64,000 nt of DNA from an uncultured Akkermansia sp. (GTDB lineage: Bacteria > Verrucomicrobiota > Kiritimatiellia > RFP12 > JAAYNR01): positions 262 to 64,261 of the forward strand of contig CAZOJL010000004.1 in NCBI GenBank assembly GCA_964580075.1, read 5' to 3'. Position 1 is the first letter of the stretch, and every line of letters starts with the position of its first letter. Shown piece by piece: positions 6,046 to 61,711 of this stretch. A model generated the notes under the pieces. That model worked only from the letters and a program-made list of their open reading frames with translations, was not told the DNA's origin and searched no databases. Position numbers and translations under genes: made by a program.

Positions 6046-9000
6046 CTACTCATCCAAAACAAATCGCGGATATGACGCGAGATCGCGTCTTCCCGCCAGA
6101 CCCTTGGCCAACTGCATCCAATAGCGCTGTCCGTTGCCGTCGTCATCGTCCAGAAAAACGATGTTGAACCCGAACGGTTCACCGGGTTTCAAGCCGATGT
6201 CGGCCAGCGGCAAACGGAGCTCGTAGCGGGTGGTTTTGGCGGCGTCGTCGCGAACCACGGCGTATTGTGCGGACTGCGTCAGGGAGTCGCCGTTGCCGAC
6301 AAACGGGTGGAAGACGAGGCCATTCGCGGTCAGGGCTAGACCGACATTCCACTCGACGCCATTCGTCATGGCCACCCCCACCTGCAGGGCGTCGCCATTC
6401 CAGATCATGCCGCCGGTCTGCCGGTTGAAGTGCTTGTCGTCCGTCACCTCCGCCGCCAGGCAGAGGGCATCGCCGTCCGATCCCCACCACGCCCTGACCC
6501 CCAGGTCTTCAGGTCCCTCCCACAACAGTTGGCGTCCCGGCGGCCGACGGCGGTCCTCCGGGTAGACCTGGAAGAGACTCCGGCGGACCAGCGACGGCCT
6601 GCCCGGTAGTGTATCGAATGCCTCCTGCGGAGCCTTGGGTGCCTTACCCCATTCGTCCAAGTCGCCGTCGATACGCACGGCCTGGGTCAGGCGCGGCATT
6701 CGGCGGGGGGTCTCGACGGCAACGGGAGGCTCAGCCGCGCTTCCCGCGACGGCGTCGGGAGCCGTGCGCGCGCCGCGCCAGCCGTTCGCTTCCGAGCGGG
6801 ATTCCCGGCTGAAGGATGCCTCCCGATGTTTGAAGACCGCGCGGCTGCGGTCCGATGTGCGCAGGGGAGAGTTGAGGTCGCCGAAGAATCCGCCGCGATA
6901 GCCGGTGCCGCTGGCGAGGTCGCTGCCGGAGATGGGCGGCCAATCGGCCGGCACATTCACCGTTCCCGCGCCGTGGGAGCCTTCAAACCGGCGGCCCCGT
7001 GCATTTCCGACCGTCACCACCTGTTCGCGCACGTTACCGCTCAGATCGAGTATCCCCCAGTACGAGGCCCCTGCGGCGACGCGTCCGCTTTCCGATGTTG
7101 CAAAGACCCCCGCGCGCATCGGGCTGCCTGGAATCGCGCTCACGCCGCCGCGCGTCGGGCCACCGAAGTAGGCAGGCATGGTCAGCTCGTAGTGGGCGTT
7201 GCCGATCCCCGGATCGTCATTACCTGCCATCCGCTCGGCGGACGTTCCTTCTCCGGTCGCGGTGTATTCCGTCCGCGCGATGGCGGTCGTACCCCAGGCG
7301 AACGCATTGGGTGCCGGTTGGCGCGGCCCGCGGCTGGCCTTCTCGTACTCCAGTTCTGTCATCGGCCGCAATCCCGACCACGCCGCGAACTGGGCGCTGT
7401 CCCACCACGAGAGGAGGTTGCAGGCCTGGTAGGGCTTGGCCGCCGTGAAATTCGGCCAGACACCGGAGAGGGCGTACCGCCCGACAGCGGTATAGGTGGC
7501 GCCGGCATGCGAGCTGTCACCGCTCGAGGTGGCTGCGAATGCCGCGCTCGACAGCGTGTTCAGAAACGCGGTGAACTGTCCGCGCGTCACCTCGTAGCGC
7601 ATGCAGTAGAAGGGCTCATAGCCGGTGGGATAGCCGTTGACGAGGGCGCCCTCCGGGCCGATGGTGTCGGGTCCGAATTCGCTCACACCCCAGAGCCGGC
7701 CAGGCGCGCCGCCGATGCGCCGGGCAGTGGAGCCTTCCGCCACCGGGCCGCTCCAGTCGGCGTCCACCCGGAAAGGAATCGTGTCGCCGTCGGTCCAGGA
7801 GCCGTCGGTAAAGCTGCCGCTCTCCGCTCCGCCAGACCCCACCGTGAACGCGCCTCGCGGTACGTAGACCATCTCGATGGCAAAGACCTTCAGGTCGGCT
7901 TCGGCGGGGTTGGTCACGCCGTCGGCGCCGGAAAGCCAGCTCAGGCTGACGTCCGTGAGGTCGAGCGGGCCTTGCCCGGAGCCGGCTCGGTAGATGAACG
8001 CGCCCATCCCCTTACCGCCGGTGAGCCCGACATCCAGCGCCGCCTCTTCGGGCGCGGTGTGGGCGGCGCGATCCGACGCGAGTGTCGCAGGGAAGTACCC
8101 GTCCTTTTCCCGGCCGGGGAGACGGTACTTGGCGAACACCCACGCCGCGCTCCAGCTCTCGACCGGCATCTCCTGGCCGGTCACGCCGGTCGCCGCCGGT
8201 TCCTTCCAGTCCGCCCGCCAGGTGTCGCCCCAGGCCAGATCGAATCGCACCGTGCTCTGCTCCTCGGCGGTGCCTTTCTCCACGCGGACGCGGTCGATCC
8301 GGATCTGGTTGTTTTCGGCCGGTCCGCCCCGGAAGCGCGCGGTGGCGGCCTCTTCGACGGATGTTGTGGCGGCGGCGGCATCCGGTTGCGGCGTCGTGTC
8401 GTCAAGGGAATCGGCGTATGCGACGAAGGCGTCGAACGACCACGTCCAGTAGAGAAACGCCCGTCTGGCGGCGGTATTGTCGGATCGCTCGATGTCTTCC
8501 AGCGCCTGATCGCGCAGCTCCTTCATCCGGGCCACGACATCTGCCGGCCAGATCTCCCGGAACAACTTCGGGGGGACGCGCTGCTCGGCGAGCCGCAACG
8601 GGCGCGACAGGGCGGTCTTCTGCCAGCGGTCGCACTCGAGGCGCAGGAGCTCGCGAGCGCTGGCGGCGCCCGCGCCGAAGAGCCGCTTACACATTTCATC
8701 CAGCGTCGCATCCACATCCAGGTCCGGGTTCCACAGCGCGCGGTTCCAAACGTAGTAGGTGGGGGCAGCGGTGACAAAGCAGGCGGCGCCATACGAGAGC
8801 ACCATGCCGCCATCGAGCCGGTTGCGGTTCGTCTGATAGAACTCCTTGACCAGATGGGGGAACTGGACCGGGCCGTACGTCCAGTCGCCGGGGCCGGCGA
8901 AGTCGATCCACATGGTGACCGGCCTTCCCGATTTCTCAGCCCAGGCGCGCAGGAGGCCTTCCTGCTCCTGGCGGATGACCGGCTGGTGCAGCAACCCCAT

Positions 9001-10242
9001 CGTGCCCAGATCAAGGGATGCCACCACGAGGTTGTCCGGAAAGTTCAATTCTTCCGGGCACTTCAAGATACCCCAGGGCACGTAGATCACTTTCTTGTCG
9101 GGCCAGCGCTGCTTGACCTCCTCGCACAATCGCCTCACGAAATCGCCCATGATCAGCGCATCGCCGCCCTTGGCGGACATCTTCCGGCAGGTTTCGCAAC
9201 AGCAGGCGGAGACCAGCGAGTTATTGCCCAGATCCATGCAGGGCCAGAGGGTGACGCTGGAGCGTGTGATGCCGCCGATATACGTGCCTTTGCCGCCCTT
9301 GTCCCCCCACGCCCGTTCCAGATTATCGACATAGCAGGCGATCAACTCCGGCGCGCTGTAGCAGAACGTCTCGAAATTCCGGCTTTCGTCTTCACGGATC
9401 GCAAACAGGGCCTCGTGGGTTCGCAGCGTGGTGTTCATGAATTCGTAGATGCGCGCGCCTTGTTGCACGGCCTCATACGGCCAACTGTTGCCCTGGCGGA
9501 GCAGCCGGAAGTGATCGCCCAGCCAGAGCGTCTCCGAGCCCTCGGCGCCGGCGCCGGGAGGCATCTGGAGAATTTGTTCGTCGCACGAGCGCGCCTGCAG
9601 CCAGTACCAGTCCTGGTACATTCGCCGATAGGAAAACACAGGCTGATCGTGGTAGTGAAGCGGAGGAATGGCGAGCGAGGTGTAGGGCAGGATGGAGCGT
9701 CCGCCGTAGGGCGTTGGCCAGTACCAGCGGACCCCTGCAAACCGCTCCAGGAAATCCGCCACAGCCCAGGCCAGCCCGTCGCCGCCCCGCGTGCTTCCCA
9801 CGAGATAAATGCGGTTGGGGGCGGTCTTGATGACAAACCCCTCGACCGGGATCTGGGTGGCGTCGATGCCGGCCTGACGCGCCTCCTCGCAATCCCCGAT
9901 CACAATGGCCGGCTGGTCCGCTGCGGGAAGGTTCGTCACGATGGACAGGTCTGCCCCGGTGGCGATTTTGATCGTGTCGACCAGTTGGTCGACCAGTTGC
10001 TTGAGCACGGGCGGGTGATCCCCGGATCTTCTGGGTGTCCAGTTCCAGAGCGCCGTTGCCTGGGGGTTGGCCATGCAGACCACGGTCTTCGCAACCCCAT
10101 CGCGCACAATCTCGACGGGCGGATGCTTCGGCGCCTTCAGCCACGTCACGGGAGTCAGGTCGCGCGGTTTGAGATCCACTTCAGCCACAGTCTGGAGCGC
10201 CATCGCAGCCGTCAATGATGTAACCACAACGAGTCTTTTCAT
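6046..10242 (-). CDS. secreted multidomain protein: N-terminal DUF4838-like domain, FGE/SUMF1-like domain lacking catalytic Cys, C-terminal CBM9-like domain
   Basis: 1398 aa with a signal peptide. The first roughly 600 aa are paralogous to ORF 36040..37539 (LKPRDLTPVTWL...PAIVIGDCEE.RQAGIDA...VADFLERF.GVRWYWPT). The middle has FGE-sulfatase-like motifs (YCMRYEVTRGQFTAFLN; YWGILDLSGNVREQVV; YRGGFFGDLNSPLRTSDRS) but not the FGE cysteine pair. The C-terminus has AVRIDGDLDEWGKAP...WNGDALQVG...GFNIVFLDDDDG, resembling CBM9/DOMON-type binding domains. Confidence 0.65.
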   Translation of the reverse strand: MKRLVVVTSLTAAMALQTVAEVDLKPRDLTPVTWLKAPKHPPVEIVRDGVAKTVVCMANPQATALWNWTPRRSGDHPPVLKQLVDQLVDTIKIATGADLSIVTNLPAADQPAIVIGDCEEARQAGIDATQIPVEGFVIKTAPNRIYLVGSTRGGDGLAWAVADFLERFAGVRWYWPTPYGGRSILPYTSLAIPPLHYHDQPVFSYRRMYQDWYWLQARSCDEQILQMPPGAGAEGSETLWLGDHFRLLRQGNSWPYEAVQQGARIYEFMNTTLRTHEALFAIREDESRNFETFCYSAPELIACYVDNLERAWGDKGGKGTYIGGITRSSVTLWPCMDLGNNSLVSACCCETCRKMSAKGGDALIMGDFVRRLCEEVKQRWPDKKVIYVPWGILKCPEELNFPDNLVVASLDLGTMGLLHQPVIRQEQEGLLRAWAEKSGRPVTMWIDFAGPGDWTYGPVQFPHLVKEFYQTNRNRLDGGMVLSYGAACFVTAAPTYYVWNRALWNPDLDVDATLDEMCKRLFGAGAASARELLRLECDRWQKTALSRPLRLAEQRVPPKLFREIWPADVVARMKELRDQALEDIERSDNTAARRAFLYWTWSFDAFVAYADSLDDTTPQPDAAAATTSVEEAATARFRGGPAENNQIRIDRVRVEKGTAEEQSTVRFDLAWGDTWRADWKEPAATGVTGQEMPVESWSAAWVFAKYRLPGREKDGYFPATLASDRAAHTAPEEAALDVGLTGGKGMGAFIYRAGSGQGPLDLTDVSLSWLSGADGVTNPAEADLKVFAIEMVYVPRGAFTVGSGGAESGSFTDGSWTDGDTIPFRVDADWSGPVAEGSTARRIGGAPGRLWGVSEFGPDTIGPEGALVNGYPTGYEPFYCMRYEVTRGQFTAFLNTLSSAAFAATSSGDSSHAGATYTAVGRYALSGVWPNFTAAKPYQACNLLSWWDSAQFAAWSGLRPMTELEYEKASRGPRQPAPNAFAWGTTAIARTEYTATGEGTSAERMAGNDDPGIGNAHYELTMPAYFGGPTRGGVSAIPGSPMRAGVFATSESGRVAAGASYWGILDLSGNVREQVVTVGNARGRRFEGSHGAGTVNVPADWPPISGSDLASGTGYRGGFFGDLNSPLRTSDRSRAVFKHREASFSRESRSEANGWRGARTAPDAVAGSAAEPPVAVETPRRMPRLTQAVRIDGDLDEWGKAPKAPQEAFDTLPGRPSLVRRSLFQVYPEDRRRPPGRQLLWEGPEDLGVRAWWGSDGDALCLAAEVTDDKHFNRQTGGMIWNGDALQVGVAMTNGVEWNVGLALTANGLVFHPFVGNGDSLTQSAQYAVVRDDAAKTTRYELRLPLADIGLKPGEPFGFNIVFLDDDDGNGQRYWMQLAKGLAGRRDLASYPRFVLDE

Positions 10243-10307: not shown

Positions 10308-11729
10308 TTACGCTGTTCCCGACGGCACCTCAACCAGTTCACAGTCGTCGAACCAGGCATCGCCTGTTCCGTCGACGCAGAGCTTGACCAGCAGGAACGG
10401 ATTATCCGGGGCGGGCTGGAATTCGATCGTCAGTTTCGTCCAGCCGGTCGTGCCGCTGATGCCCGCGCTGCGCCGCGTGGCCCGCACGTCGTTCCAATTC
10501 AACAGACAATCGTCCACGGCAACCGAGGCTTCGCCATCGGTCAGCTCTGTTTTGACCCAGGCGCTGAGACGGTAGCGTTTGGCCGTCTCGCCGTAGGTTG
10601 CGGTGCCGGACCGATTGGGCGTTCCCGCGACGGGCTGGCCGCGCCCCATACCCGAGACTTTTAACGAAACGGTCCCCGAATGCCCTTGCGTGCGATCCAC
10701 GATCACGTTCCTCCAGGTGGACCCATTGTAGACTTCGTCACCATTGATTCCATGCTCGAAATCGTTCACGACGCCAAGCCGGAACCCGGGCTGGTTGCTG
10801 GGGCCGGCATTCTGCGATGCTGCCCGGCCCTCCAGCGCCTCCGCCACAGCGGCGGGAATCGAGAGAAAACGGTAGCGGGCGCGGAGGTGGTGGTGACCGT
10901 CGGCTTCCGGCGTCGCGGGCACCTTGGCTTGAATGCCCAGGTCATACCACAAGTCACAGGTTGCCATCCGCACGGCGCCGTTTACCTCTTCCAGCGCCAC
11001 AAACGGGTTCATATCCGGCTCGCGCACGAATCCGGTGAATCCGTTGGAGGCCAGAGGCACACGCGGGTAGTTCAATGGATTGTGATAAAACCACGTGATC
11101 GTGTCGCCCCCTGCGCCGTTCAGCACCTTCTGCCAGCGCTTGCGGCTGTCGTGGGAGACCGACACCCCGCCCGCCAGCAGGTTGCAGAACTCAACCCAAT
11201 TCGGTTTCGTCATGACGCAATGCATCGCGCAGTGCCACACATAACCGAGTGTGGCGTCCCATACCAGGCGAAACGAGCCCTCGCCCGTCGCGCCGCAGGC
11301 GAGTTCCGTGGTGGTGTTGAAGGCGAGCACGGGCCCTTCTCGCGTCACGAAATCAAGCCGGGAAACCGCATTCGGTGATTGCCAGAGCGGCGCGTTGATG
11401 GAAATCTTGGCGCCCACGAGCGTCGCCCAGTGGTGGAAAGGCGGGATCGTGTAATCACCCGTCGGCTCACCCTCCGCGGGCGGCGCGAAGCGGAACATTT
11501 CGATCTCCTTGTTCCAACTCTGGATCAAACCGATCTTATGAGCTCCGTCGAAAATCCAGTACCATTCGGTCCCCTCGGCATGCGGTGCGGGAGGAAATGA
11601 CACGAGATGGAAATGGGGTTGGTACGCCCGTTCCGGAAGCTGCCGCCACGCGGGCACCGTTTCGAGGACCTGCTGAAGCTGTCCGCCGGGTGTCCCCGGG
11701 CCGGTGTCGTGAGGGGAAGATGAGATCAT
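10308..11729 (-). CDS. hypothetical protein with C-terminal CBM_4_9-like carbohydrate-binding domain
   Basis: I placed the start at MISSSPH (11729), which has an AGGAG 9 nt upstream. The listed upstream extension lies in an AT-rich promoter-like stretch. The C-terminal beta-sandwich motifs (GWTKLTIEF...GDAWFDDCELVEV) resemble CBM4/9/22 modules. No signal peptide. I do not recognise the N-terminal domain. Confidence 0.5.
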   Translation of the reverse strand: MISSSPHDTGPGTPGGQLQQVLETVPAWRQLPERAYQPHFHLVSFPPAPHAEGTEWYWIFDGAHKIGLIQSWNKEIEMFRFAPPAEGEPTGDYTIPPFHHWATLVGAKISINAPLWQSPNAVSRLDFVTREGPVLAFNTTTELACGATGEGSFRLVWDATLGYVWHCAMHCVMTKPNWVEFCNLLAGGVSVSHDSRKRWQKVLNGAGGDTITWFYHNPLNYPRVPLASNGFTGFVREPDMNPFVALEEVNGAVRMATCDLWYDLGIQAKVPATPEADGHHHLRARYRFLSIPAAVAEALEGRAASQNAGPSNQPGFRLGVVNDFEHGINGDEVYNGSTWRNVIVDRTQGHSGTVSLKVSGMGRGQPVAGTPNRSGTATYGETAKRYRLSAWVKTELTDGEASVAVDDCLLNWNDVRATRRSAGISGTTGWTKLTIEFQPAPDNPFLLVKLCVDGTGDAWFDDCELVEVPSGTA

Positions 11730-11880
11730 TCCGTTTGGCTCCTGAAAAAATGCGTGCGCGACCCTGCGCCCCGCAAAAAATTTAACACCAGCATCCCATA
11801 GGCTCACCCGGAAACGTTCCAGTTCCCGCAGTTGGTATCTATTATACGGGTGGGGTGACAAAGATCAACCCCAAAAACCA

Positions 11881-18931: not shown

Positions 18932-19413
18932 CTACGGCGCGCCAGGGGCCGCTTCGCGCAGGAGGCTACGGCGCGCCAAGGGCGCGGGGTGCCAGGAGTC
19001 AGGGGACAGGAGTCAGGAATCAGTGTGTCGTTGTCTTGAGTCTTAATCTCCGGTCCTAATCTCCAGTCTTAATCTTTCCGCGGAAAGACAAAGACCCGAG
19101 ACGAAGACCGGAGTTTAAGACCGGAGAAGGAAGCGACGCAGGGCGGGTCTGGCGATAACGGGCCCGCCTTGTGTGTTTGTCCGCAGATGACGCAGATTAA
19201 GAGGTAGGGGAAGCAGGGTTCGGGGTTCAGGGTTCAGATCGTTGTCGCAATCGTTGTCGACAACGGTCGGAACGATGATCGGGCCAATGATGTGGGGCGA
19301 CAACGATAGAGACAACGATGGGAGATCGGTTGACGATTACGGGGAGATGCCGCACAATCGTCCACCGTTGTCGTCGCCGTAGTCGTCCACCGGGATTCAG
19401 AAAGGAACATGAA

Positions 19414-22400
19414 ATGAAACGATTCGACATTGCGCCCTTTGCCCTGCCCAACGCGTTGGCGGGGGAGTTGAAGTTCGAGGAACTGAGGGACATCGAGACC
19501 GTCGCGGTGGATTTCGACGGCCCGGCGCCCAAGACGGTCAGCTTGCAGTACCTGCGCAAGCACTGGCCCGGCGTGCGTATCGAGCGCACGATGGAGATGG
19601 ACCAGCAGCGGCCCATGTCCGTCGGTTGGTTCCGGATGGATGATCCCTTCACGCCGGAATGGGTGCCGGCCGCGACCCGCGTTGTCCGGCGCGGAAAGAA
19701 GACGTTGGTCTTCTCGTTCCATCCGCTAACTGCGGAACTCCCGGACGTGACGGACTACGCGGTGGGCTTCCGGCGCACCCTCGGCGTACGCGTGGCGGAG
19801 AGCGCGGTGGGCGTCAAGGCGATACGGGTCTTTACCCGGTCGCAGCCGGCGCGCAGCAAACTGCGCGTCGAACTGCACGCCGGCCGGAGGACCGCCGCGA
19901 AGACCATCGGGGTGAGCGGCTACAACGCGGTTGTGCGCGCGGTGCAGGCCGGTGGCGGCACGCGCGTGACGGCCACAGACATCCATGTCGGCGCGGGCCG
20001 GCAGGCGGCCTTTGAGATTGAACTCGATCACATGGAGCCTGTGCACCGTTACGCCAACGACGGCGCACACGTCCGCTTCGATCTGGGCCGGGACGCCTTC
20101 ACGATCGCGTTGGCCGCGCTGGACGCGCAAGGTCCGATCTGGTTTGCCGACGCCGGCATCTTCATTGTCCGCGCCGCGAATCCGGAGACCTTTGCCGCCT
20201 ACCGGGAGCGCATCCAAGGGTGCCGCACGGTGGCGACCGAGATTGCGGCGCTGCCGGAACAGTCCCTCGCCGGCGCCATGAACGGTCAACCGCGGCCGCA
20301 CCCCATTGCCTATGTCTGCGGCTGCCGGCACGCCCGCCAGAAATTCTGGATCGAGCCCTGTGGCGATATCGAGCTGACAGGATGTCTGGTGAAGCGCAAC
20401 TCGAACTCGTGGTTGGGGACACCCGAGGGGCGCGATACGCCCAAGTGGAAGAACGCAGGAATGGCACGCATCTTCTTCGGTCTCGACCTGTGGGCGGCGG
20501 AAGCCCGGCATAACGCCCCCTGGCCGGTCATGGCCTACAACCAGCAATTCCGGCGCGATGCCGTGCGTGTCCGGCAAAAGTGCTTCGCTGTGCCGCTGAC
20601 GCAATCCATTCTGGCCGGCGAACCGGCGCCGGATGCGACAATGGTGGCACTGGTTCGCTTCTCCTTCGAGAATACGGGTGACGCTCCCGCCGTGGCAGAG
20701 TTGCCGGTGTCCTACAGCCATCTCTCACATCGTGTCCATAACCGCCGGGTCCTGCGCGACCAGAACTGGACGCACGTAACCGACTCGTTGGTTCCGAAAT
20801 GCGAGCGGGAGAAACTGGTTGTGGACGGCGACCTCATCCGCGGTTCCTATCAGAATGAACTGGTCCCGCGCCTCATGTTCCAGACGGACATGACGGCCGA
20901 GACGACCGCTGCGGGTGTGCACTTCCGCAAGAAGCTTCAACCCGGCGAAACCTGCGAGTTTCTGGCGCGCATTCCGTTTGTCGCTGTCGAGTCGGAGGAT
21001 GAACTCGCGGCGCTGCGCGGGTTGGATTTCGGCCGGTGCTATGACGAGATGGCGCGCTACTGGCGCGAGGAAAGCCGGAAGAGCGCCCAGATCCAGACGC
21101 CGGATCCCCATCTGAACGCGGTTTACACCGGGCATCTGCCGATGGTGGTGATGAGCGACTTCGGCCACACGGACCATCCGTATATCGTCAGCACGTCGGT
21201 GGGCGCCTGTACTTACGGCAACTTCACCAACGAGTCGGTGATGATCGTCGAGGAACTCCAGCAGCGCGGCATGACGGACGACGTTCGGCGGCGCCTGGCT
21301 GCCTGGGTGAAGTATCAGGGAACGGTCGGCTTGAACGGCCGGTTCACGGACCACGACGGGGTGTTCTACGGTAGCGGCGGTTGGGAGTCGGGGCAGAGCT
21401 ACAACCAGCATCACGGCTGGGCTTTGTGGGCGCTGGCGCGGCATTTCCTGCACACGGGCGATCGCGCGTGGTTCGCCAGCGTGGCAGACAGTGTCATCAA
21501 AGGCGCCGAATGGATCGCGCGCCAACGTCGCGAGACGCTCAAGACCTTGCCGCACTCGCGCGGCTGGGAGCGCGGTTTTCTGCCGGCCGGCGCGCTCGAG
21601 GACGTGGAGGACTTCTTTTACTGGTTGAGCACCAACTGCCTGACCTGGCGCGGGCTGGACAGTGCGGCCGCCGCGCTGGAAAAATTCGGCCATGCCGAGG
21701 CCGCGCGCTACCGCAAGGAGGCAAACGCCTATGGCCGCGATCTGCGCCGCGGTTACGAGGAGGCGCGCCGGCATAGTCCGCTCGTCCGCCTGCGCGATGG
21801 ACGCTGGGTTCCGCACTATCCGTCCCGCCTCTATTGCCGCGGTCGAGACTACGGCTGGATTCGCGAAACGCTGGAAGGCTCGGTCTATCTGCTGATCTCA
21901 GGACTCTATTCGCCCGAGAGCAAACAGGGCGGCTGGATTCTGGACGACTACCAGGATACCCGGTACATGAGCCCGCCCTACAGTTATCCGATCCACGATC
22001 CTCAGACCGAATGGTTCGACTGCGGCGGCATCTGCCCGCAGCCGGCGCTGCTGGCCGGCCTGCTGCCGCACCTCGACCGCGACGAGATCGAAGTGTACCT
22101 GTGGATGTTCTTCAATGTCTGGGCCGCGTGCTATCGCCCCGAAGTGCAGGCCTTTGTGGAGCATCCCCAGCCGGTGCTGGGCTTTGGCAACTGCGCGCCA
22201 TTCAAGACCAGCGACCAGTCCAACGCCATGAAGTGGCTGGCCTATCTGTTCGTTTACGAGCGGGATGGACTGCTGCACCTTGGCCGGGCGATACCGCGCG
22301 CCTGGTTTGCGCAGGAACAGGCTTTTAGTGCCACGCGGCTGAGCACACCGGCCGGCATCGTTTCGGTCGAGTACCGTCCGCAGTTGGCGGCCGAGAAGAT

Positions 22401-22590
22401 TGAGACCGAGGTCGAACTGGAACTCCGCGCGAAGCCCGAGCGGTTGCTGCTGCGCTTCCGGCATCCGGAGAAGAAGCCGATCCGGTCGGTTACGATCAAC
22501 GGGCGCGCGTCGCAGGCTTTTGATGCCACGAACGGCGATGTGGAATTACCGACTGTTAGTGGCAAGGTGTGCGTGACGGTCAGCTATTGA
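19414..22590 (+). CDS. large hypothetical protein (about 1058 aa), possibly an (alpha/alpha)6-barrel glycoside hydrolase
   Basis: Start at MKRFDIAPF (the upstream part of the listed ORF lies in minisatellite DNA). No signal peptide. Coding-like composition throughout; GSGGWESGQSYNQHHGWALWALARHF is reminiscent of six-hairpin glycosidases. I do not recognise the family. Confidence 0.45.
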   Translation: MKRFDIAPFALPNALAGELKFEELRDIETVAVDFDGPAPKTVSLQYLRKHWPGVRIERTMEMDQQRPMSVGWFRMDDPFTPEWVPAATRVVRRGKKTLVFSFHPLTAELPDVTDYAVGFRRTLGVRVAESAVGVKAIRVFTRSQPARSKLRVELHAGRRTAAKTIGVSGYNAVVRAVQAGGGTRVTATDIHVGAGRQAAFEIELDHMEPVHRYANDGAHVRFDLGRDAFTIALAALDAQGPIWFADAGIFIVRAANPETFAAYRERIQGCRTVATEIAALPEQSLAGAMNGQPRPHPIAYVCGCRHARQKFWIEPCGDIELTGCLVKRNSNSWLGTPEGRDTPKWKNAGMARIFFGLDLWAAEARHNAPWPVMAYNQQFRRDAVRVRQKCFAVPLTQSILAGEPAPDATMVALVRFSFENTGDAPAVAELPVSYSHLSHRVHNRRVLRDQNWTHVTDSLVPKCEREKLVVDGDLIRGSYQNELVPRLMFQTDMTAETTAAGVHFRKKLQPGETCEFLARIPFVAVESEDELAALRGLDFGRCYDEMARYWREESRKSAQIQTPDPHLNAVYTGHLPMVVMSDFGHTDHPYIVSTSVGACTYGNFTNESVMIVEELQQRGMTDDVRRRLAAWVKYQGTVGLNGRFTDHDGVFYGSGGWESGQSYNQHHGWALWALARHFLHTGDRAWFASVADSVIKGAEWIARQRRETLKTLPHSRGWERGFLPAGALEDVEDFFYWLSTNCLTWRGLDSAAAALEKFGHAEAARYRKEANAYGRDLRRGYEEARRHSPLVRLRDGRWVPHYPSRLYCRGRDYGWIRETLEGSVYLLISGLYSPESKQGGWILDDYQDTRYMSPPYSYPIHDPQTEWFDCGGICPQPALLAGLLPHLDRDEIEVYLWMFFNVWAACYRPEVQAFVEHPQPVLGFGNCAPFKTSDQSNAMKWLAYLFVYERDGLLHLGRAIPRAWFAQEQAFSATRLSTPAGIVSVEYRPQLAAEKIETEVELELRAKPERLLLRFRHPEKKPIRSVTINGRASQAFDATNGDVELPTVSGKVCVTVSY

Positions 22591-28248: not shown

Positions 28249-29928
28249 ATGATGAAACTTGTCATAGCAGCAGACCATGGCGGCCTTTCCCTGAAATCCG
28301 CTCTTCTCGCCCGTTTGTCGGCCCGCTCGATGAATGCCGAAGATCTCGGTTCGTGCTGTGCGGGTCCTGTCGATTATCCCGATATGGCCGTCCGGCTTGC
28401 CGAGCGGATTGTCGAGGGCCAGGCCGACCGCGGTGTGCTGATCTGCACCACCGGCATCGGCATGTCGATCGCGGCGAACCGCTTCAGCGGCGTCCGCGCC
28501 GCCCTGTGTGCCACAGCGGAGCAGGCGTGCTGCGCGCGCAGCCACAACGACGCGAATGTGCTGGTGCTCAACGGGCAGATGGACGCAGACACGTGTGCCG
28601 CCGTTCTGGACGCCTGGCTCGACACCCCGTTCTCCGGGGAGGTTCGTCATGTCCGCCGCATCGCCAAGCTCGAACGGTCCGGTCGGCTTGCCGAGGTTTC
28701 ACATTTGGCCCAGGCCGATCCCGAAATCCACGCAGCGGTGGTCGCACAGATCGAGCAGGAAGATTCGACCATCAACCTGATCGCCTCCGAAAACACCGTC
28801 AGCCGCGCCGTGCGCGAAGCGACGGGGAGCGTGCTCACCAACAAATACGCCGAAGGGTACCCCGCCAAGCGCTGGTACGGCGGATGCGGCCCCGTCGATC
28901 AAGCCGAGACGCTGGCCATCGAGCGGGCCAAGGCCCTGTTCGGCGCCGATCACGCCAATGTCCAGCCCCACTGCGGGAGTTCCGCCAACATGGCGGTCTA
29001 TTTCTCCGTGTTGAACCCCGGCGACACGATCCTCGCCATGTCGCTCGACCAGGGCGGACACCTCACGCACGGCAGTCCCGTAAATTTCTCGGGCAGACTC
29101 TTCAACATCGCCGCCTACACCGTCTCGCCCGAAACCGAGGTGCTGGACTACGATATCATCGCCGAACAGGCGCGCGTCTGCCGTCCGAAACTGATCGTCG
29201 CGGGCGCCAGCGCCTATCCGCGCATCCTCGATTTCGCCCGGTTCCGCGCCATTGCGGACGCCTGTGGCGCCCTGCTGATGGTGGATATGGCGCATATCGC
29301 CGGTCTGGTCGCGGGCGGCGCCCATCCGTCGCCCGTGCCGTTTTCCGATTTTGTCACCACCACCACCCACAAGACCCTCCGCGGTCCACGCAGCGGCATG
29401 GTCCTCTGCAAGGCCGCCTATGCCCACGTGATCGACAAGACCGTTTTTCCCGGTCTTCAGGGCGGGCCGCTGCAGAGCATCACGGCCGCCAAGGCGGTCT
29501 GCTTCGCCGAGGCGATGCGCCCCGAATTCAAAGCCTACGCCGGACAGGTGATCGCCAACGCGCGCGCCCTCGCCGCCACCCTCGCCGCGCGCGGCTTCCG
29601 CCTCGTCTCGGGCGGCACCGACAACCACCTGATGCTGGTCAACGTCGCGGCCCGCGGCCTCACCGGAAAAGCGGCGTCCGCCGCGCTCGATGCCGCCGGG
29701 ATCATCTGCAATAAGAATGCGATCCCGTTCGACACCCAGAGCCCCTTCGTCACCTCGGGCGTCCGCATCGGCACCGCCGCCGTCACCACACGCGGCATGG
29801 GCGAGGCCGAGATGACGCGCATCGGCGGCTGGATCGCCGATATTCTCTCGGACATCGACAATACCGACGTGCAGGCGCGCGTCCGGGGCGAAGTCGCCGA
29901 CTGCGCCAGCCGGTTTTCCGTACCGTGA
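28249..29928 (+). CDS. glyA: in-frame fusion of ribose-5-phosphate isomerase B (RpiB/LacAB, N-terminal about 150 aa) and serine hydroxymethyltransferase
   Basis: N-terminus [18 protein letters not shown]...[17 protein letters not shown]...[12 protein letters not shown]...[10 protein letters not shown] is RpiB. It then continues without a stop or frame change into [53 protein letters not shown]...HKTLRGPR (SHMT with the PLP lysine region). Confidence 0.8.
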
Positions 29929-36039: not shown

Positions 36040-37539
36040 CTATTGGCCGGCGGGCGTCCATTCGCCATCCGCGGGTTGATTGGTTTCGCTCCCCTTCGCT
36101 TCGGCGAGAAACCCGTCAAACGTCCACGTCCAATAGAGGAAGCGCTGCCGCCCGACCGGATCATCGGCCAGTTCGACCCGCGCCTTGTCCCGCAACGCCA
36201 TCATCTGGACCACCACATCGGGAGGCCAGATCTTCTGGTACATGGCCGGCGGGATGCGCCCTTGATCCGCCAAGCCGCCCTTCACGGTGTCCCAGCGGGC
36301 GCACTGCAGCCGGATCAGTTCCCGCACGGTGCCGCCGGCCTGGCCGTAGAGCCGACGGCACATCGCGTCGAGCACGGCGTCCACGTCCAGTTCCGGATTC
36401 CAGAGCGCCTTCATCCAGACATAGAGCGTCGGCGCGGAAGTCGTCCAGTCGGCCATGATGCCGCCGTTGATGAACGTCCCGGCGAGCACCGTGCGGTTCG
36501 TCCGGTAGAATTCGCACACGAGGTGTGGGTACTGCACGGGGCCATACGTCCAGCCGCTGCCGCGGTCCCAGGCGTCCTCACACCCCTGGAGGAGATAGGC
36601 CAGCGTGTTCGTGGAGCTGTAACAGAGCATGCTCAGATGCGGTGTTCCGTCAGCCTTCTGCTGAAACATGTCGTGCAGCTCGGGATGCTTGGACCACTTG
36701 CTCTCCCACTGCTTCCAGAGTTTCTGCGGCTCGTGAACCTTCACCTGGTAGGGCCAACTGTTGCCCTCGCGCACCAGCGGCAAATAGTCAGCCATGTCCA
36801 CCTTCGCCACGTCATCGGGAATGGCGCCCGGCGCGAAGGGGAGAGGCTCCTTGTCGAACCAGCGTGCGTTCTGCGGCAGCGGCCATCCGGCTTTCGGATG
36901 GAACAGGCGCTGGCGGAAAACGGGCTGATCCTGATAGGCAACCGGGGGGATGACGAGCGAGGCGTGGGTGACGAGGGTTCTCCCGCCGAGGTCCGTCGGC
37001 CAGTACCAGCGCACGCCGACAAAGCGCTCCAGGAAGTCCGCCACGGCCCAGGCCGTGCCTTCGCTGGCCCAGTAAGCCCAGCGATTGCTCCCTGTCGGCA
37101 GCGCCTGCGTGCTCCCCACGAGATAGACGCGGTTGGGGGCGGTCTTAACAACAAACCCCTCGAACGGCAATGTCGCCGCGTCGATGCCGGCCTGGCGCGT
37201 CTCCTCGCAATCGCCAATCACGATGGCGGGCTGGTCCACCGCCGGCGGCTCGAACACGCGTTCGAACGTGGCGCCGGTGCTCAGGCGAACGACCTCCAGC
37301 AGCTCGTCCACCAAACGCGTGAGCGTCGCGCTGGGTTTGGGGTCGGCAACGAAGATCACGGCCCGTGCCGTGCCGTTGCGCGCCAGCTCGACCGGCGCAT
37401 GCACTGGCGCCGTGAGCCACGTCACGGGCGTCAGGTCGCGCGGTTTGAGTTCGTCGCCGGCCAGCGTCGGCAGCACCAGCGCGGCCGAAAAGGCCACGAG
37501 TTGCACCATCTGCAGTCTGTATAGTCTTGTTTTTCTCAT
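36040..37539 (-). CDS. secreted DUF4838-family protein (putative glycoside-hydrolase-like)
   Basis: 499 aa with a signal peptide. It is strongly paralogous to the N-terminal 600 aa of ORF 6046..10242. Its start overlaps the stop of the upstream glycine-rich gene (ccATGa). Confidence 0.6.
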   Translation of the reverse strand: MRKTRLYRLQMVQLVAFSAALVLPTLAGDELKPRDLTPVTWLTAPVHAPVELARNGTARAVIFVADPKPSATLTRLVDELLEVVRLSTGATFERVFEPPAVDQPAIVIGDCEETRQAGIDAATLPFEGFVVKTAPNRVYLVGSTQALPTGSNRWAYWASEGTAWAVADFLERFVGVRWYWPTDLGGRTLVTHASLVIPPVAYQDQPVFRQRLFHPKAGWPLPQNARWFDKEPLPFAPGAIPDDVAKVDMADYLPLVREGNSWPYQVKVHEPQKLWKQWESKWSKHPELHDMFQQKADGTPHLSMLCYSSTNTLAYLLQGCEDAWDRGSGWTYGPVQYPHLVCEFYRTNRTVLAGTFINGGIMADWTTSAPTLYVWMKALWNPELDVDAVLDAMCRRLYGQAGGTVRELIRLQCARWDTVKGGLADQGRIPPAMYQKIWPPDVVVQMMALRDKARVELADDPVGRQRFLYWTWTFDGFLAEAKGSETNQPADGEWTPAGQ

Positions 37540-38324
37540 GGCCTTCCTCTGTTTGCGCCGGGACCATCATACCCGCCGCCGCCGCCGCCGCCGCCATAAT
37601 AGTTGCCCGAACTTGTGGGCCATTCTACACCGTCGCCGCCGTAACCACCATTGCTGCCGTCATCGAGAGAGGCGTGACCATCCTCGCCCGGCGCGCTCGC
37701 ACCGCCACCGCCAGCGCCGGAGTCATGGGTACTGTCAGTGTAATTGCAGCCGCCACCGGCATACCCCTGACCTGGCGTTCCTGCCCCACCATCATCAGTG
37801 AGATACCGACAACCGGCGCCACCCCCGGAGCCGCCGTCTTTGGCCGGGTTAACGAGATTTTGGGCTGCGGTTGTTGCGCTCGAGCCGCCACCGCCGCCGA
37901 TTGCCGGACCAACCAGCCCGACGATCGCGCTGTTCTCTCCATTCTCACCCGCAAGAAGCCCGGATAGCACTCCGCTGCCGCCGTTGCCTACTGTGACGGT
38001 GTAAGACTGCTTCGCGACCTGCACCGCTCCCGTCAGGACGCCACCCGCGCCACCACCGCCGCCGATGTTGTAGCCGCCGCCACCACCGCCGGCCACGATG
38101 AGGTGTTCGATTTTGCCCGGTGACGTGACATCGAGCGTGCCGCCCGGGTACGTGAAGGTGTGATACACCATGCCATTGGTGATCGTCGTGGTGCCGCCCG
38201 TGGCATGCACCGCTTCTGCCTGCGGCGCCAGCACGCCAAGCGTCACCGCAGCCAGCGCCAGGCCGACTGCCCCGCGCGCGAACCCGCGCGCTGTCTTGAT
38301 TGTGCATAGGCTTATTATTCTCAT
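37536..38324 (-). CDS. secreted glycine-rich protein (paralog of 16445..)
   Basis: Start at VMRIISL (GAGGAGG RBS). Signal peptide ...APQAEA. The ...GKIEHLIVAGGGGGGYNIGGGGGAGGVLTG...YTVTVGNGG architecture matches 16445..17077. Glycine-rich C-terminus. Confidence 0.55.
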   Translation of the reverse strand: MRIISLCTIKTARGFARGAVGLALAAVTLGVLAPQAEAVHATGGTTTITNGMVYHTFTYPGGTLDVTSPGKIEHLIVAGGGGGGYNIGGGGGAGGVLTGAVQVAKQSYTVTVGNGGSGVLSGLLAGENGENSAIVGLVGPAIGGGGGSSATTAAQNLVNPAKDGGSGGGAGCRYLTDDGGAGTPGQGYAGGGCNYTDSTHDSGAGGGGASAPGEDGHASLDDGSNGGYGGDGVEWPTSSGNYYGGGGGGGGYDGPGANRGRP

Positions 38325-38465
38325 GACCCTCCTCTTTTCTGTTGGTGACCGACCGACCGACCCGCCGAGGCCGATCACTGTTCACTGATTACTGTTCACT
38401 GATCTACACCCCGCCACGCTCACCTTTATTGCGCGTCGTTTTCGTCATCTCTTCTGGCTCAGAAA

Positions 38466-50674: not shown

Positions 50675-51595
50675 TCAGCTTCCTTTCTTGACGGGCACAT
50701 GCGTGGCGGCGGCGACCGCCGCCTCCCATGCAGCGACAGTGACGGCCTCGGGGAAGGCGGAGTCGTCCATGGGAGCGGGCTTGCCGATGCGCTCGCTCTT
50801 CGACTGGCCGAGCGGATGGTACGGCATGAGGTTGACCTCGAGAATATGGTGAAGTCGGTTCGCCAAGGCTGCGATCCCGGCAAAATGGTCATCCCTGGCG
50901 TTGAGCCCGGGGATGATCGGGCAGCGCAAGATGGTCTTCGCCCCGAGCTGGTCGAGGCGGATCAGGTTGTCGACGATGACCTCCCGCAGCGCACCGGTAT
51001 ACTCCTGATGACGGGCGGGATCGGTCTCTTTGTAATCGTAGAGGAAGAGATCGACCAGGGGCATGATCTGTTCCAGCCGGTCGAATGGGGCAAAGCCGGA
51101 GGTCTCGATGCAGGTGTGGAGTCTGCGCCGCTTGGCCTCCTGGAGCAAGGCAAGGGTGAATTCGAATTGGAAGAGCGGTTCACCGCCCGAGATGGTCATG
51201 CCGCCGCCCGAGGTCTCATAAAATGGCTTGTCCTTCTCGACCTCCGCGATCACTTCCGCGACGGTCATCTCCCGTCCGATGAGTTCGAGGGCCTTGGCGT
51301 AGCACTTCTCGGTGCAGACGCCGCAGCGCTGGCAAAGCTCCCGGCGGAAGGTGCGGTTCCCGTCCTCGCCCATGACGTGTCCGCCATGCGGACAGGCCTG
51401 GAAGCAGTGTCCGCAGCCGATGCACTTGGAGGGGATGAGCGAGATTTCGGCGGCTCTTTCCTGCGACTCCGGGTTGTGACACCAGAGGCAACGCAGGGGG
51501 CACCCCTTCAGGAAGACGGTCGTCCGTATGCCGGGTCCGTCGTGGATAGAGAACTTCTGGATGTCAAAGACGATGCCGTTCATGTCTATAATCAT
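50675..51595 (-). CDS. glycyl-radical enzyme activating enzyme (radical SAM)
   Basis: CPLRCLWCHNPES (CxxxCxxC) plus ferredoxin-like CIGCGHCFQACP ... CQRCGVCTEKC clusters. 306 aa. Its start overlaps the stop of the glycyl-radical enzyme gene by 4 bp. Confidence 0.8.
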   Translation of the reverse strand: MIIDMNGIVFDIQKFSIHDGPGIRTTVFLKGCPLRCLWCHNPESQERAAEISLIPSKCIGCGHCFQACPHGGHVMGEDGNRTFRRELCQRCGVCTEKCYAKALELIGREMTVAEVIAEVEKDKPFYETSGGGMTISGGEPLFQFEFTLALLQEAKRRRLHTCIETSGFAPFDRLEQIMPLVDLFLYDYKETDPARHQEYTGALREVIVDNLIRLDQLGAKTILRCPIIPGLNARDDHFAGIAALANRLHHILEVNLMPYHPLGQSKSERIGKPAPMDDSAFPEAVTVAAWEAAVAAATHVPVKKGS

Positions 51596-61413: not shown

Positions 61414-61711
61414 GCGTGGGATCAGTGTAGCCGAGCGGTGGACGGGAGACAATGCCGAAGTAATGGGCTGTCGTAGTCATGGGCCCACGATGTCCAAACG
61501 GGGAATCATGGTAGTGTCGGGGGATTAGGGTAGTTGACTCCTCATCGAAGGCATCCTATGTTACACCCCAGTATTGTTTTTGAGAGGTGCTCGCGACTGG
61601 CTGTTGCACAGGATCTGAGCACGATATGTTTACCAATAGCATTCACGGAGTCTGTGACCGGACGCAAACAGCGGCCGGCATGGGCTCATCGATTAGAAGA
61701 AGGAATACACC

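Follow-up and report, generated by a model that had tools for sequence, protein, structure and literature searches.

The open reading frame at 6046..10242 of the window, the whole 64,000-nucleotide stretch of DNA under study, runs from ATG to stop on the minus strand and encodes a 1398-aa protein, which is a real, conserved, secreted fusion of anaerobic PVC-group bacteria and not an assembly chimera. The protein combines a DUF4838 unit with a beta-sandwich, an FGE-like domain and a CBM9-like domain, and represents a variant, as yet uncharacterised, that is put together from known building blocks and is not a new kind of system. As the best explanation, to which we give an even chance, it would be a secreted modular glycan processor, in which a hydrolase-type unit is coupled to a non-catalytic recognition cassette.

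Conservation and genomic setting of the fusion

The preliminary description of this DNA had proposed a secreted 1398-aa fusion, which is borne out by a reading frame occupying exactly these positions and by a Sec-like N-terminus. Residues 1-21 (10180..10242), read by eye from the sequence as a signal peptide ending at MKRLVVVTSLTAAMALQTVA/EV, have an n-region with K/R, then a hydrophobic core and a cleavage-type site of T-V-A, a layout that by inspection is of the Sec type; using a crude signal-peptide rule, a comparable N-terminus is found in 37/56 orthologues. Full-length orthologues (51–99% identity) lie on independent contigs, one of which carries a 99%-identical protein, with more than 14 other full-length clusters besides, and the DUF4838 unit, the cassette and the CBM9-like module are contiguous in a single frame at 10 genomic loci, further loci holding the first two parts only. 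The gene has a GC3 of 0.81, similar to that of its neighbours, and a search for a composition break along the reading frame found none. A chimera or mis-join, which had been named beforehand as what would speak against the fusion, finds no support, since at least 15 full-length clusters and 22 genomic loci keep the same junctions across independent assemblies. All three parts are found elsewhere as separate genes, and the long reading frame could be an artefact of assembly or annotation joining separate DUF4838, FGE-like and CBM9-like genes; given the conservation just described, the chance of this is practically negligible.

The proposed survey of related genomes yielded, besides these full-length clusters, 22 related loci in Kiritimatiellia/Lentisphaerae and Planctomycetota MAGs. 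The architecture had also been regarded as unrecognised: indeed, a literature search found no paper describing DUF4838+PF03781, but the combination is not rare, occurring in roughly 90/120 clusters listed. The FGE-fused groups form one clade (35/35) in a neighbour-joining tree, which indicates that the FGE-fused DUF4838 clade is monophyletic, with a single origin.

The co-directional upstream gene, p517 (10308..11861, minus strand), is 65 nt from the fusion gene and is a recurrent neighbour, its homologues adjoining or lying near the fusion gene at loci L001, L005, L008, L012 and L013. The p517 family is PVC-restricted, and a Pfam domain is found in none of its 21 clusters; the C-terminus is weakly CBM-like, with a weak CBM_4_9 match and a match to the CBM 4d0q. 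Only p517 accompanies the fusion gene, which is otherwise flanked by lpxI/lpxB and by a PLD-like gene, so this is not the local setting of a polysaccharide-utilisation locus. Elsewhere in the window, 36040..37539 (minus strand) encodes a 499-aa stand-alone DUF4838 protein, of which the N-terminal 600 aa of the fusion had been called a duplicate. It is instead a paralogue with an internal deletion of ~120–130 aa: in BLASTP it is 43% identical to the fusion protein over residues 3-321 and 51% over 454-618, and residues ~322-453 are missing. Comparison with its relatives indicates that the deletion is strain-specific, as all 279 are ~610–650 aa long, save its own 100% cluster, and the closest loci have about 122 extra codons.

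The DUF4838 unit and its remodelled pocket

Pfam detects DUF4838 at residues 188-529 (46.8 bits, E 2.9e-12, cutoff 26.6), a low score when compared with the 94–120 bits of stand-alone relatives. The AF2 model of the N-terminal unit (md6af9ebee240) has a pLDDT of 92 and gives full-length Foldseek matches to GH115, GH84, GH20 and GH67 structures, GH115 and GH67 being the top ones, which have in common with it the layout of an N-domain followed by a barrel. The alpha/beta N-domain (residues ~30-200, 9643..10155) is of the GH20b/GH67N type, as seen from the model, Foldseek and a weak Pfam match to Glyco_hydro_67N (residues 82-152, E 0.28). The (beta/alpha)8 barrel (residues ~201-510, 8713..9642) corresponds to DUF4838 (PF16126; GH163/GH185 superfamily) by Pfam and the model, in which its strands span 205-208, 251-252, 288-293, 329-332, 384-387, 405-407, 442-447 and 476-482; it carries conserved cysteines, C294 and the motif C347-x-C349-x-x-C352. 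The unit is closed by a helical bundle (residues ~511-615, 8398..8712; modelled helices 510-542, 558-564, 567-587, 590-599 and 603-615), which is 51% identical in the paralogue. An Ala/Thr/Pro-rich linker follows (residues ~616-645, 8308..8397), of low complexity and with pLDDT below 50 at the ends of both models.

The DUF4838 call of the preliminary description thus stands, with a Pfam match above cutoff, but the domain had been treated as being of unknown function, and it is in fact the domain responsible for catalysis in CAZy families GH163 (BT1035, the endo-beta-N-acetylglucosaminidase of Bacteroides thetaiotaomicron) and GH185 (Sp_0475, the exo-6-sulfo-beta-GlcNAcase of Streptococcus pneumoniae), so that the characterised members, built on PF16126 like the unit described here, are beta-N-acetylhexosaminidase-type hydrolases (PMC10570127). 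The fusion protein differs from both families in its appended beta-sandwich, FGE-like and CBM9-like modules.

A further difference resulted from comparing the pocket between 52 stand-alone relatives and 20 orthologues of the fusion protein. In the former, H261, D342, N391, Y392, Y447 and N482 are conserved in 51–52/52, each position being placed by the model at or just past the C-terminal end of a barrel strand, whereas the fusion orthologues have Q, S, variable, variable, D and L, respectively, and the stand-alone E/Q at 207 is replaced by T/R. GH185 needs Q174, H227, D309 and Y436 (PMC10570127). If E/Q207, H261, D342 and Y447 are their counterparts, as may be supposed from the type, order and spacing of the residues and from their position on the strands, then three or four of the needed residues are substituted, the Sp_0475-type E/Q, H, D, Y set becoming T/R, Q, S and D, with D337 close to the S. 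Such substitutions could mean that catalysis was lost. The clade has, on the other hand, a conserved pocket set of its own (Y209, Q210, D211, W212, E267, W333, D337, D447, D453 and Y484, each in 16–20/20), which speaks for a working pocket kept under selection. Among these, D337 (16/20) lies 5 residues after beta4, and the invariant Asp of the stand-alone groups 4 residues after that strand; as the gap placed by MAFFT in the beta4 loop is arbitrary, D337 stands essentially where the stand-alone Asp does. The beta4 loop of the sister 'mid' group has no Asp.

The FGE-like cassette and the CBM9-like module

The middle ~400 aa, previously described as an FGE domain, do contain the corresponding motifs and a PF03781 match but consist of two domains. 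The first is a beta-sandwich with no assigned family (residues ~646-794, 7861..8307), delimited by the model and by alignment to the stand-alone family discussed below. It is modelled entirely as beta-strand (pLDDT mostly 60–91), opens with AENNQIRIDRVRV, and gave no match in Pfam and PDB sequence searches. The second is an FGE-sulfatase-like domain with insertions (residues ~795-1160, 6763..7860), matched by Pfam at residues 876-997 with 25.6 bits in the whole protein and 33.7 on the segment (cutoff 23.3), and carrying RYEVTRGQFTAF at 882-893, GNVRE at 1069-1073 and RGGFF at 1116-1120. Against a canonical PF03781 domain, hhalign gave a probability of 98.6% and E 1.1e-15 over 225 columns, end to end from MVYVP to GWRGART; the PF03781 model is matched by 52/52 family members, P0134 and P0190 spanning HMM positions 34-255. 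The structural model is poor over residues 904-1177 (pLDDT <50), and we assign the domain to the FGE-sulfatase superfamily from these sequence comparisons.

The family profile also matches FGE chains in the PDB (human SUMF1 and bacterial FGEs; 2aft, 1y1e, 6s07, 2q17; best E 2e-9) across MVxIPxGxF, FYxxxYEVT and SWxDAxAYxxWxGxRLPTExEWE, and the GNVxE and RGG motifs of FGE are kept. Unlike FGE, the domain has three sizeable insertions, is always preceded by the dedicated beta-sandwich, is secreted within a glycosidase-like protein of probable anaerobes, and has no Cys pair. Indeed, no cysteine exists between residues 942 and 1260, so the pair cannot be present, in agreement with what had been noted before; CxxxxC follows the RGG motif in 0/58 orthologue and 0/113 relative occurrences, and the pair is equally absent from another PF03781 subtype, closer to the canonical form, that is also joined to DUF4838. 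The loss is not special to the fusion protein and holds across the whole family of relatives checked. The domain would have a non-FGE role, probably in binding or recognition, although to our knowledge no established CBM family is made up of FGE-like domains.

That the domain is a working FGE, or a redox enzyme of the SUMF1/EgtB/PvdO type maturing or modifying sulfatases or other proteins, might be supposed from the PF03781 match, from database names of orthologues ('formylglycine-generating enzyme required for sulfatase activity', 'nonheme iron enzyme') and from the Cys-type sulfatase gene that the preliminary description had pointed out. This gene (61534..63276) is within the window but lies about 52 kb away and is broken by an in-frame TAG, so the argument from context is weak. 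The copper site of FGE consists of its two Cys residues, and the enzyme requires O2, whereas these genomes encode glycyl-radical enzymes, which are typical of anaerobes; also, there is no DinB-type iron domain such as EgtB has. The many PF03781 genes of strictly anaerobic Kiritimatiellales have been called paradoxical (PMC6388578). With the Cys pair absent, FGE activity of the middle domain is effectively refuted, and we consider an enzymatic role of this kind highly improbable.

After a linker of low pLDDT (residues ~1161-1185, 6688..6762), at which orthologues of ~1140–1220 aa stop, a CBM9-like beta-sandwich (residues ~1186-1398, 6049..6687) is defined by the model (pLDDT ~75–92 over 1247-1395) and by Foldseek. 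It matches the CBM9 structures 7nwn (Caldicellulosiruptor), 7nwo and 1i82 (CBM9-2 of Thermotoga maritima Xyn10A), as well as 4jpq, with E 1e-6 to 3e-5, the probability being 1.00 for 7nwn and 1i82. The CBM9-type C-terminus suggested earlier is thus confirmed at the level of the fold (target-normalised TM 0.60–0.68), although identity is 13–14% and Pfam CBM9_1 scores 18.0 bits, under its gathering cutoff of 23.4. As in CBM9 proteins, the module is C-terminal in a modular carbohydrate-active-type protein, but among fusion orthologues it is optional, being missing in ~40 clusters among the matches listed.

The FGE-like segment is matched by 2452 cluster representatives, 784 of them at E<=1e-30, and the best matches listed are mostly ~500 aa long. 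These align over the beta-sandwich, which is their N-terminal ~150 aa, and the FGE-like part, with signal-peptide cleavage directly before ANN(I/L)xVxNV, the motif that starts the mature proteins and opens the beta-sandwich of the fusion. By homology, the two domains, with or without the CBM9-like one, also constitute a large family of secreted stand-alone proteins. Their genes adjoin the fusion gene at L006 (n=3), L012 (n=4) and L013 (n=3), in clusters that also hold DUF4838 paralogues, chondroitinase-B-like beta-helix genes, GFO/IDH/MocA, GH4 and p517 homologues.

Possible roles: glycan processing, capture or scaffolding

In the favoured reading, a modular glycan processor, the protein would be exported by the Sec pathway and the N-domain, barrel and helical bundle (~25-615) would bind, and probably cleave, a glycan. 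Its glycan specificity, and possibly also its mechanism, would not be those of GH163 and GH185; the replacement pocket set includes several further carboxylates besides a beta4-loop Asp. The cassette, made of the beta-sandwich, the FGE-like C-type-lectin-type domain without its Cys pair and the CBM9-like domain, would be non-catalytic and hold the catalytic unit on a polymeric substrate or partner, thereby serving recognition or targeting.

The pocket substitutions may also be read differently, the protein being a double pseudo-enzyme whose DUF4838 barrel is now lectin-like and which, secreted or at the surface, captures glycans and feeds nearby true hydrolases; such a role recalls the surface glycan-binding proteins of Bacteroidota. 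The replacement of near-invariant stand-alone residues of the GH185 type would be consistent with it, as would the lack of a beta4-loop Asp even in the sister 'mid' group, the FGE-like domain without Cys pair, the two further binding-type modules, and the intact stand-alone DUF4838 paralogues that adjoin the fusion gene at L012-L015 and could supply catalysis. We nevertheless find this unlikely, although deserving of consideration: D337 remains next to the position of the stand-alone Asp, the newly conserved D211, E267, D447, D453 and Y484 sit at strand ends as in a re-tooled active site, and GH115 and GH67 use carboxylate-only mechanisms on the same fold.

FGE binds a peptide rather than a sugar, and PorK/GldK and GldJ are FGE-fold lipoproteins that form structural parts of the type IX secretion system (T9SS)/gliding apparatus and are not lectins. 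Together with pFGE/SUMF2 (1y4j) and PvdO, they have the fold without generating formylglycine, as proposed for the fusion, and the family profile weakly matches 1y4j, PorK (9mzu, 9ots) and PvdO; P0066, of the canonical subtype fused to DUF4838, has GldK and PvdO NCBIfam matches well under their cutoffs. The cassette might then be a scaffold whose protein-protein contacts assemble the hydrolase-like unit with the co-encoded stand-alone cassette proteins into a multi-protein complex at the cell surface, which would fit the several paralogous cassette genes in the same co-directional clusters and the PorK/GldK and GldJ matches of both the family profile and the canonical subtype. We regard this as more doubtful still, since the PorK likeness is weak and confined to the C-terminal ~45 residues (E 0.005–0.008), a lipobox is present in just 1/51 sequences checked, and the frequent CBM9-like module points to carbohydrate. 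The fusion differs from pFGE/SUMF2, PorK/GldK, GldJ and PvdO in that these are separate lipoproteins or periplasmic proteins that serve in structure or maturation, and none carries a glycoside-hydrolase-type domain or a CBM9-like module. For the fusion protein and its family, the most informative points are the altered pocket and the co-clustering stand-alone cassette family, both of which the preliminary description had missed.

Integrity and distribution of the fusion gene

The fusion protein, in which a DUF4838 unit is followed by a cassette of beta-sandwich, FGE-like (PF03781) and CBM9-like parts, is encoded by an uninterrupted ATG-to-stop reading frame of 1398 codons that occupies exactly 6046..10242 on the minus strand, as stated in the preliminary description, and whose GC3 (0.81) is like that of the neighbouring genes. 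Its N-terminus (MKRLVVVTSLTAAMALQTVA/EV) reads, by inspection, as a Sec signal peptide, in agreement with the secretion that had been proposed. We have considered whether the frame could be an assembly artefact, a mis-join having been raised as a concern, and found no break in base composition along 6046..10242. Full-length relatives come from independent assemblies: one protein is 99% identical, and at least 14 further clusters, of 1380-1470 aa, have identities of 51-81%. The proposed survey of related genomes, in which a single genome was scanned for each species, yielded 22 loci, and at ten of these the DUF4838, cassette and CBM9-like parts are contiguous in a single reading frame. On account of these independent relatives and contiguous frames an assembly chimera is rejected, and we give an artefactual origin practically no credence. 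A scan for promoters and terminators around the gene gave counts at chance level.

The architecture had not been recognised as one already described. Indeed, a literature search retrieved no paper on the fusion, on the cassette family or on the remodelled DUF4838 clade presented below, but the fusion turns up frequently in metagenome databases, where its names are uninformative or misleading, and its building blocks are all of known kinds. A search of NCBIfam found no model for the fusion protein, its paralogues, the cassette family or the upstream gene p517, the matches being limited to EgtB, SenA, GldK and PvdO, all far under cutoff, and a direct sequence search of the whole fusion protein against the PDB gave no match. 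The closest genomic locus (L001, CAMBQN010000009.1) carries a fusion orthologue 75-82% identical; to judge from the genes it carries and from all the other relatives (Kiritimatiellia, Lentisphaerae), its label 'MAG: Akkermansia muciniphila' appears to be wrong.

A DUF4838 barrel with a remodelled pocket

The assignment of the N-terminal part to DUF4838 is borne out by Pfam (PF16126, 46.8 bits against a gathering score of 26.6), residues 188-529 aligning to positions 13-319 of the 325 of the HMM, and the structural model of the unit (residues ~25-615) comprises an N-domain and a (beta/alpha)8 barrel with a GH20/GH84/GH115-related fold. TIM-barrel hydrolases have their active site at the C-terminal ends of the barrel strands. 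DUF4838 is the catalytic domain of CAZy families GH163 and GH185, represented by BT1035, which acts on complex N-glycans as an endo-beta-N-acetylglucosaminidase, and by Sp_0475, an exo-6-sulfo-beta-GlcNAcase with substrate-assisted catalysis, in which mutagenesis showed that Q174, H227, D309 and Y436, said to be shared with BT1035, matter (PMC10570127).

We have compared four groups of sequences, namely the orthologues of the fusion protein (L, n=20), DUF4838 proteins whose fusion partner is an FGE-sulfatase domain of a more canonical type (M, n=14), the stand-alone family of ~620 aa that includes the paralogue in the window (P, n=29), and stand-alone or CBM9-bearing proteins of ~800 aa (S, n=23). 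Of the 52 sequences of P and S taken together, 51-52 have each of H261, D342, N391, Y392, Y447 and N482 (fusion-protein numbering), and most have E, D or Q at position 207; in the model each of these positions lies at or just past the C-terminal end of a different barrel strand. On the sole basis of the type, order and spacing of the residues and of their strand positions, E/Q207, H261, D342 and Y447 of P and S may correspond to Q174, H227, D309 and Y436 of Sp_0475. For assignment to a CAZy family, sequence similarity to a founding member has to be significant.

At positions 207, 261, 342, 391, 392, 447 and 482 group L has T/R, Q, S, variable, variable, D and L, respectively, and the same pocket positions are similarly replaced in M. 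L and M form a single clade (35/35) in a neighbour-joining tree of the DUF4838 domain, which indicates that FGE-like fusion and pocket remodelling go together. Judged from the alignment, the L pocket is not decaying; L has a strand-end set of its own (Y209, Q210, D211, W212, E267, W333, D337, D447, D453 and Y484), each residue being kept in 16-20 of the 20 sequences. D337 lies 5 residues past beta4, versus 4 for the invariant Asp of P and S, so that the separation of the two Asp by MAFFT is probably a gap-placement artefact; a literal reading of this beta4-loop gap, as loss of the catalytic Asp, was rejected on the same offset. From these patterns of conservation we conclude that the L barrel is probably under selection for a pocket function unlike that of its stand-alone relatives, which is predicted to be either binding alone or a catalysis that differs in specificity or mechanism.

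A further set of residues, C294 and a CxCxxC motif (C347, C349, C352), encoded within 8713..9642 (-), is nearly invariant in all four groups, fused or stand-alone, and looks like a structural metal site of the zinc type. A comparable zinc site made of four Cys occurs in GH42 beta-galactosidases. The word zinc is absent from the GH185 paper (PMC10570127).

The M group (P0058-P0095, ~930-1080 aa) is a sister clade with DUF4838 fused directly to PF03781, a domain that in P0066, for example, is canonical (174.8 bits). These fusions show that the DUF4838 barrel clade has been joined to two different FGE-like subtypes. Among related proteins, P0076 has a sulfatase domain in place of the FGE-like one, and P0080 has PA14 together with an FGE-like domain.

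The N-terminal 600 residues had been described as a duplicate of the stand-alone DUF4838 protein at 36040..37539 (-); this does not hold, as the two are paralogues with 43% and 51% identity in two blocks. From the stand-alone protein (499 aa) barrel strands beta4-beta7 are missing, a segment of ~120-130 residues (~322-453). All its 279 relatives have ~610-650 aa, the length of 499 aa being found only in its own 100% cluster, and the closest loci have about 122 extra codons at the junction, the segment being present in the orthologues encoded by adjacent genes in L012, L014 and L015. From these comparisons the paralogue is probably a strain-specific in-frame deletion or pseudogene, and non-functional. 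Its start is overlapped by 4 nt by a gene for a glycine-rich-domain protein (37536..38378).

A beta-sandwich, an FGE-like domain lacking the catalytic Cys pair and a CBM9-like module

The middle ~400 residues had been taken as one segment carrying motifs of the FGE fold. The family assignment stands, since PF03781 is matched above its gathering score of 23.3 (25.6 bits with the whole protein, 33.7 with the segment), but two domains are present: residues 646-794 are confidently modelled as a beta-sandwich, for which no Pfam or PDB sequence match was found, and are followed by the FGE-like domain (795-1160). The Pfam match covers only positions 35-146 of the HMM, and the C-terminal half of the domain, searched alone against the PDB, gave no sequence match. 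In the AF2 model of residues 620-1398, based on an alignment of 56 close orthologues, residues 904-1177 have pLDDT <50, which leaves the FGE-like part unmodelled.

FGE structures were reached solely by family profiles and not by direct sequence search. An exhaustive search with the FGE-like segment returned 2452 cluster representatives, of which 784 have E<=1e-30, and the best matches listed are mostly proteins of ~500 aa, which align to residues 640-1165, that is, to beta-sandwich and FGE-like domain together. PF03781 is matched by all 52 stand-alone members sampled, in two of them over HMM positions 34-255. The profile of this stand-alone family finds human and bacterial FGE structures in the PDB (E 2e-9) and also matches CalU17, EgtB, PorK/GldK and pFGE, and hhalign aligns the family with the canonical PF03781 domain of P0066 in 225 columns that begin at the first strand and reach the C-terminal GFR motif (probability 98.6%, E 1.1e-15). 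This profile evidence argues strongly that residues 795-1160 are homologous to PF03781 over the whole domain.

FGE has two catalytic cysteines (C336 and C341 in the human enzyme) after an RGGS motif. Around its RGG motif the fusion protein reads RGGFFGDLNSPLRTSDRSRA / RGGFFGDLNSPLRTSDR, with no Cys at all in residues 942-1260, and a CxxxxC is found after this motif in none of 58 occurrences in orthologues and none of 113 in relatives; the PF03781 domains of the M group also lack the pair. The missing Cys pair excludes formylglycine generation by the fusion protein, confirming what had been noticed at the outset. In spite of the family relationship, that the middle domain is a true FGE or a redox enzyme is thus highly improbable, as the pair is missing in the fusion protein, its orthologues, its relatives and the M group alike.

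The C-terminus (residues ~1186-1398), described as of the CBM9/DOMON type, remains under the gathering score of Pfam CBM9_1 (18.0 bits, cutoff 23.4, E 0.0028), but its fold is that of a CBM9 beta-sandwich: with the confident C-terminal model Foldseek retrieved the CBM9 structures 7nwn (E 1.2e-6), 7nwo (6e-6) and 1i82 (2.5e-5), with target-normalised TM scores of 0.60-0.68, and the putative carbohydrate-binding protein 4jpq, all matches having E 1e-6 to 3e-5 and probability 1.00. About 40 orthologue clusters (1140-1220 aa) stop before this module, which is therefore optional. In CBM9, the reducing-end sugar is bound by an aromatic pair and polar residues.

In the stand-alone ~500-aa proteins, whose database entries are all environmental and without recorded names, Sec signal peptides end directly before ANN(I/L)xVxNV, and the cassette of the fusion starts with the same motif (AENNQIRIDRVRV, residues 642-654), which indicates that the DUF4838 unit has been extended by an entire secreted protein.

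Gene neighbourhoods and proposed function

Related loci have the fusion gene within clusters of co-directional genes, among them stand-alone cassette genes (L006 and L013 with three each, L012 with four); CBM9-like modules follow some of these cassettes (L013, L014, L016), and further intact DUF4838 paralogues occur in the clusters of L012-L015. Large clusters, from Planctomycetota and Lentisphaerae MAGs (L012, 936..21253; L006, 7413..20975; also L013, L014 and L015), hold 2-3 DUF4838 genes, 3-4 genes for beta-sandwich plus FGE-like proteins, chondroitinase-B-like beta-helix proteins, a GFO/IDH/MocA oxidoreductase, a GH4 enzyme and p517 homologues, a gene content that makes them a candidate polysaccharide-utilisation locus of PVC type. 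The presence of fused and separate forms of both families in the same neighbourhoods argues, in the manner of a Rosetta stone, that DUF4838 barrel and cassette are functional partners.

The gene p517 (10308..11861, -) lies 65 nt upstream of the fusion gene on the same strand, and five loci have a homologue of it adjacent to the fusion gene or close by. The family (21 clusters) is PVC-restricted, coming only from Lentisphaerae and Planctomycetes MAGs, and a Pfam search of it found no domain; the C-terminal ~100 residues have a weak likeness to CBM4/9 and to a hyaluronate-lyase CBM (4d0q, E 0.002). As the homologues have ~470 aa, translation of p517 probably begins ~45 codons after the TTG listed as its start. 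Elsewhere in the window, 28249..29928 (+) is a single 559-aa reading frame joining ribose-5-phosphate isomerase B (LacAB_rpiB, 5-141) to a complete serine hydroxymethyltransferase (153-529), and 19318..22590 (+) is a 1090-aa frame with coding-like GC3 (0.80) and no Pfam match at E<=0.1.

A Cys-type sulfatase had also been invoked as context. An S1 sulfatase gene is indeed present at 61534..63276 (+), with CSPSR near 61867, but it is 52 kb from the fusion gene and interrupted by an in-frame TAG at 62398-62400, for which reasons we reject it as support. The halves are in the same frame (288 N-terminal codons, with CSPSR, and ~292 C-terminal codons), and the gene is a pseudogene, a sequencing error or a case of read-through.

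We propose, in a reading that we place about midway between doubtful and likely, that the fusion is a secreted modular glycan-processing protein, in which the re-tooled DUF4838-type barrel would supply the pocket and probably catalysis, and the cassette of beta-sandwich, FGE-like and CBM9-like parts would supply recognition or targeting. Were the remodelled pocket, like the FGE-like domain without its Cys pair, devoid of catalysis, the fusion would be a double pseudo-enzyme serving glycan capture only, which we consider unlikely. By analogy with the FGE-fold proteins PorK/GldK, the former reached by the family profile, and GldJ, the cassette might instead serve protein-protein assembly, which appears more unlikely still. 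Beyond the glycan-processing reading, a broader joint proposition can be put forward tentatively: the cassette may be a new widespread secreted carbohydrate-recognition family or an unrecognised enzyme, an obligate partner of DUF4838-type barrels, with the barrel of the fused clade re-tooled to another catalytic mechanism or to a lectin.

The PVC group (Kiritimatiellia, Lentisphaerae, Planctomycetota) comprises major degraders of complex and sulfated glycans with many PF03781 'FGE' genes. The window encodes a glycyl-radical enzyme and its radical-SAM activase (50675..53940, -), and three PFL-like glycyl-radical enzymes are found downstream of the fusion orthologue in L001 (13205..22301), suggesting that the source organisms are anaerobic. 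This lifestyle fits a published puzzle: strictly anaerobic Kiritimatiellales have 11-20 PF03781 genes, called paradoxical in strict anaerobes because true FGE needs oxygen, and an 'alternate function' has been proposed for them (PMC6388578). The fusion locus offers a concrete, testable alternative, namely secreted PF03781 domains without the catalytic cysteines, fused to and repeatedly clustered with DUF4838 genes, and calls for caution with automatic names such as 'formylglycine-generating enzyme required for sulfatase activity' and 'nonheme iron enzyme'. If the cassette binds glycans, it would be a new type of carbohydrate-binding module, and should the remodelled barrel prove active, CAZy would probably gain a new family or subfamily beside GH163 and GH185. 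In this sense the predicted functions are a lead towards new CAZymes and CBMs and towards an explanation of the PF03781 paradox of anaerobes: were the joint proposition true, the 'paradoxical' PF03781 genes of strictly anaerobic PVC bacteria would be glycan-degrading machinery rather than sulfatase maturases.
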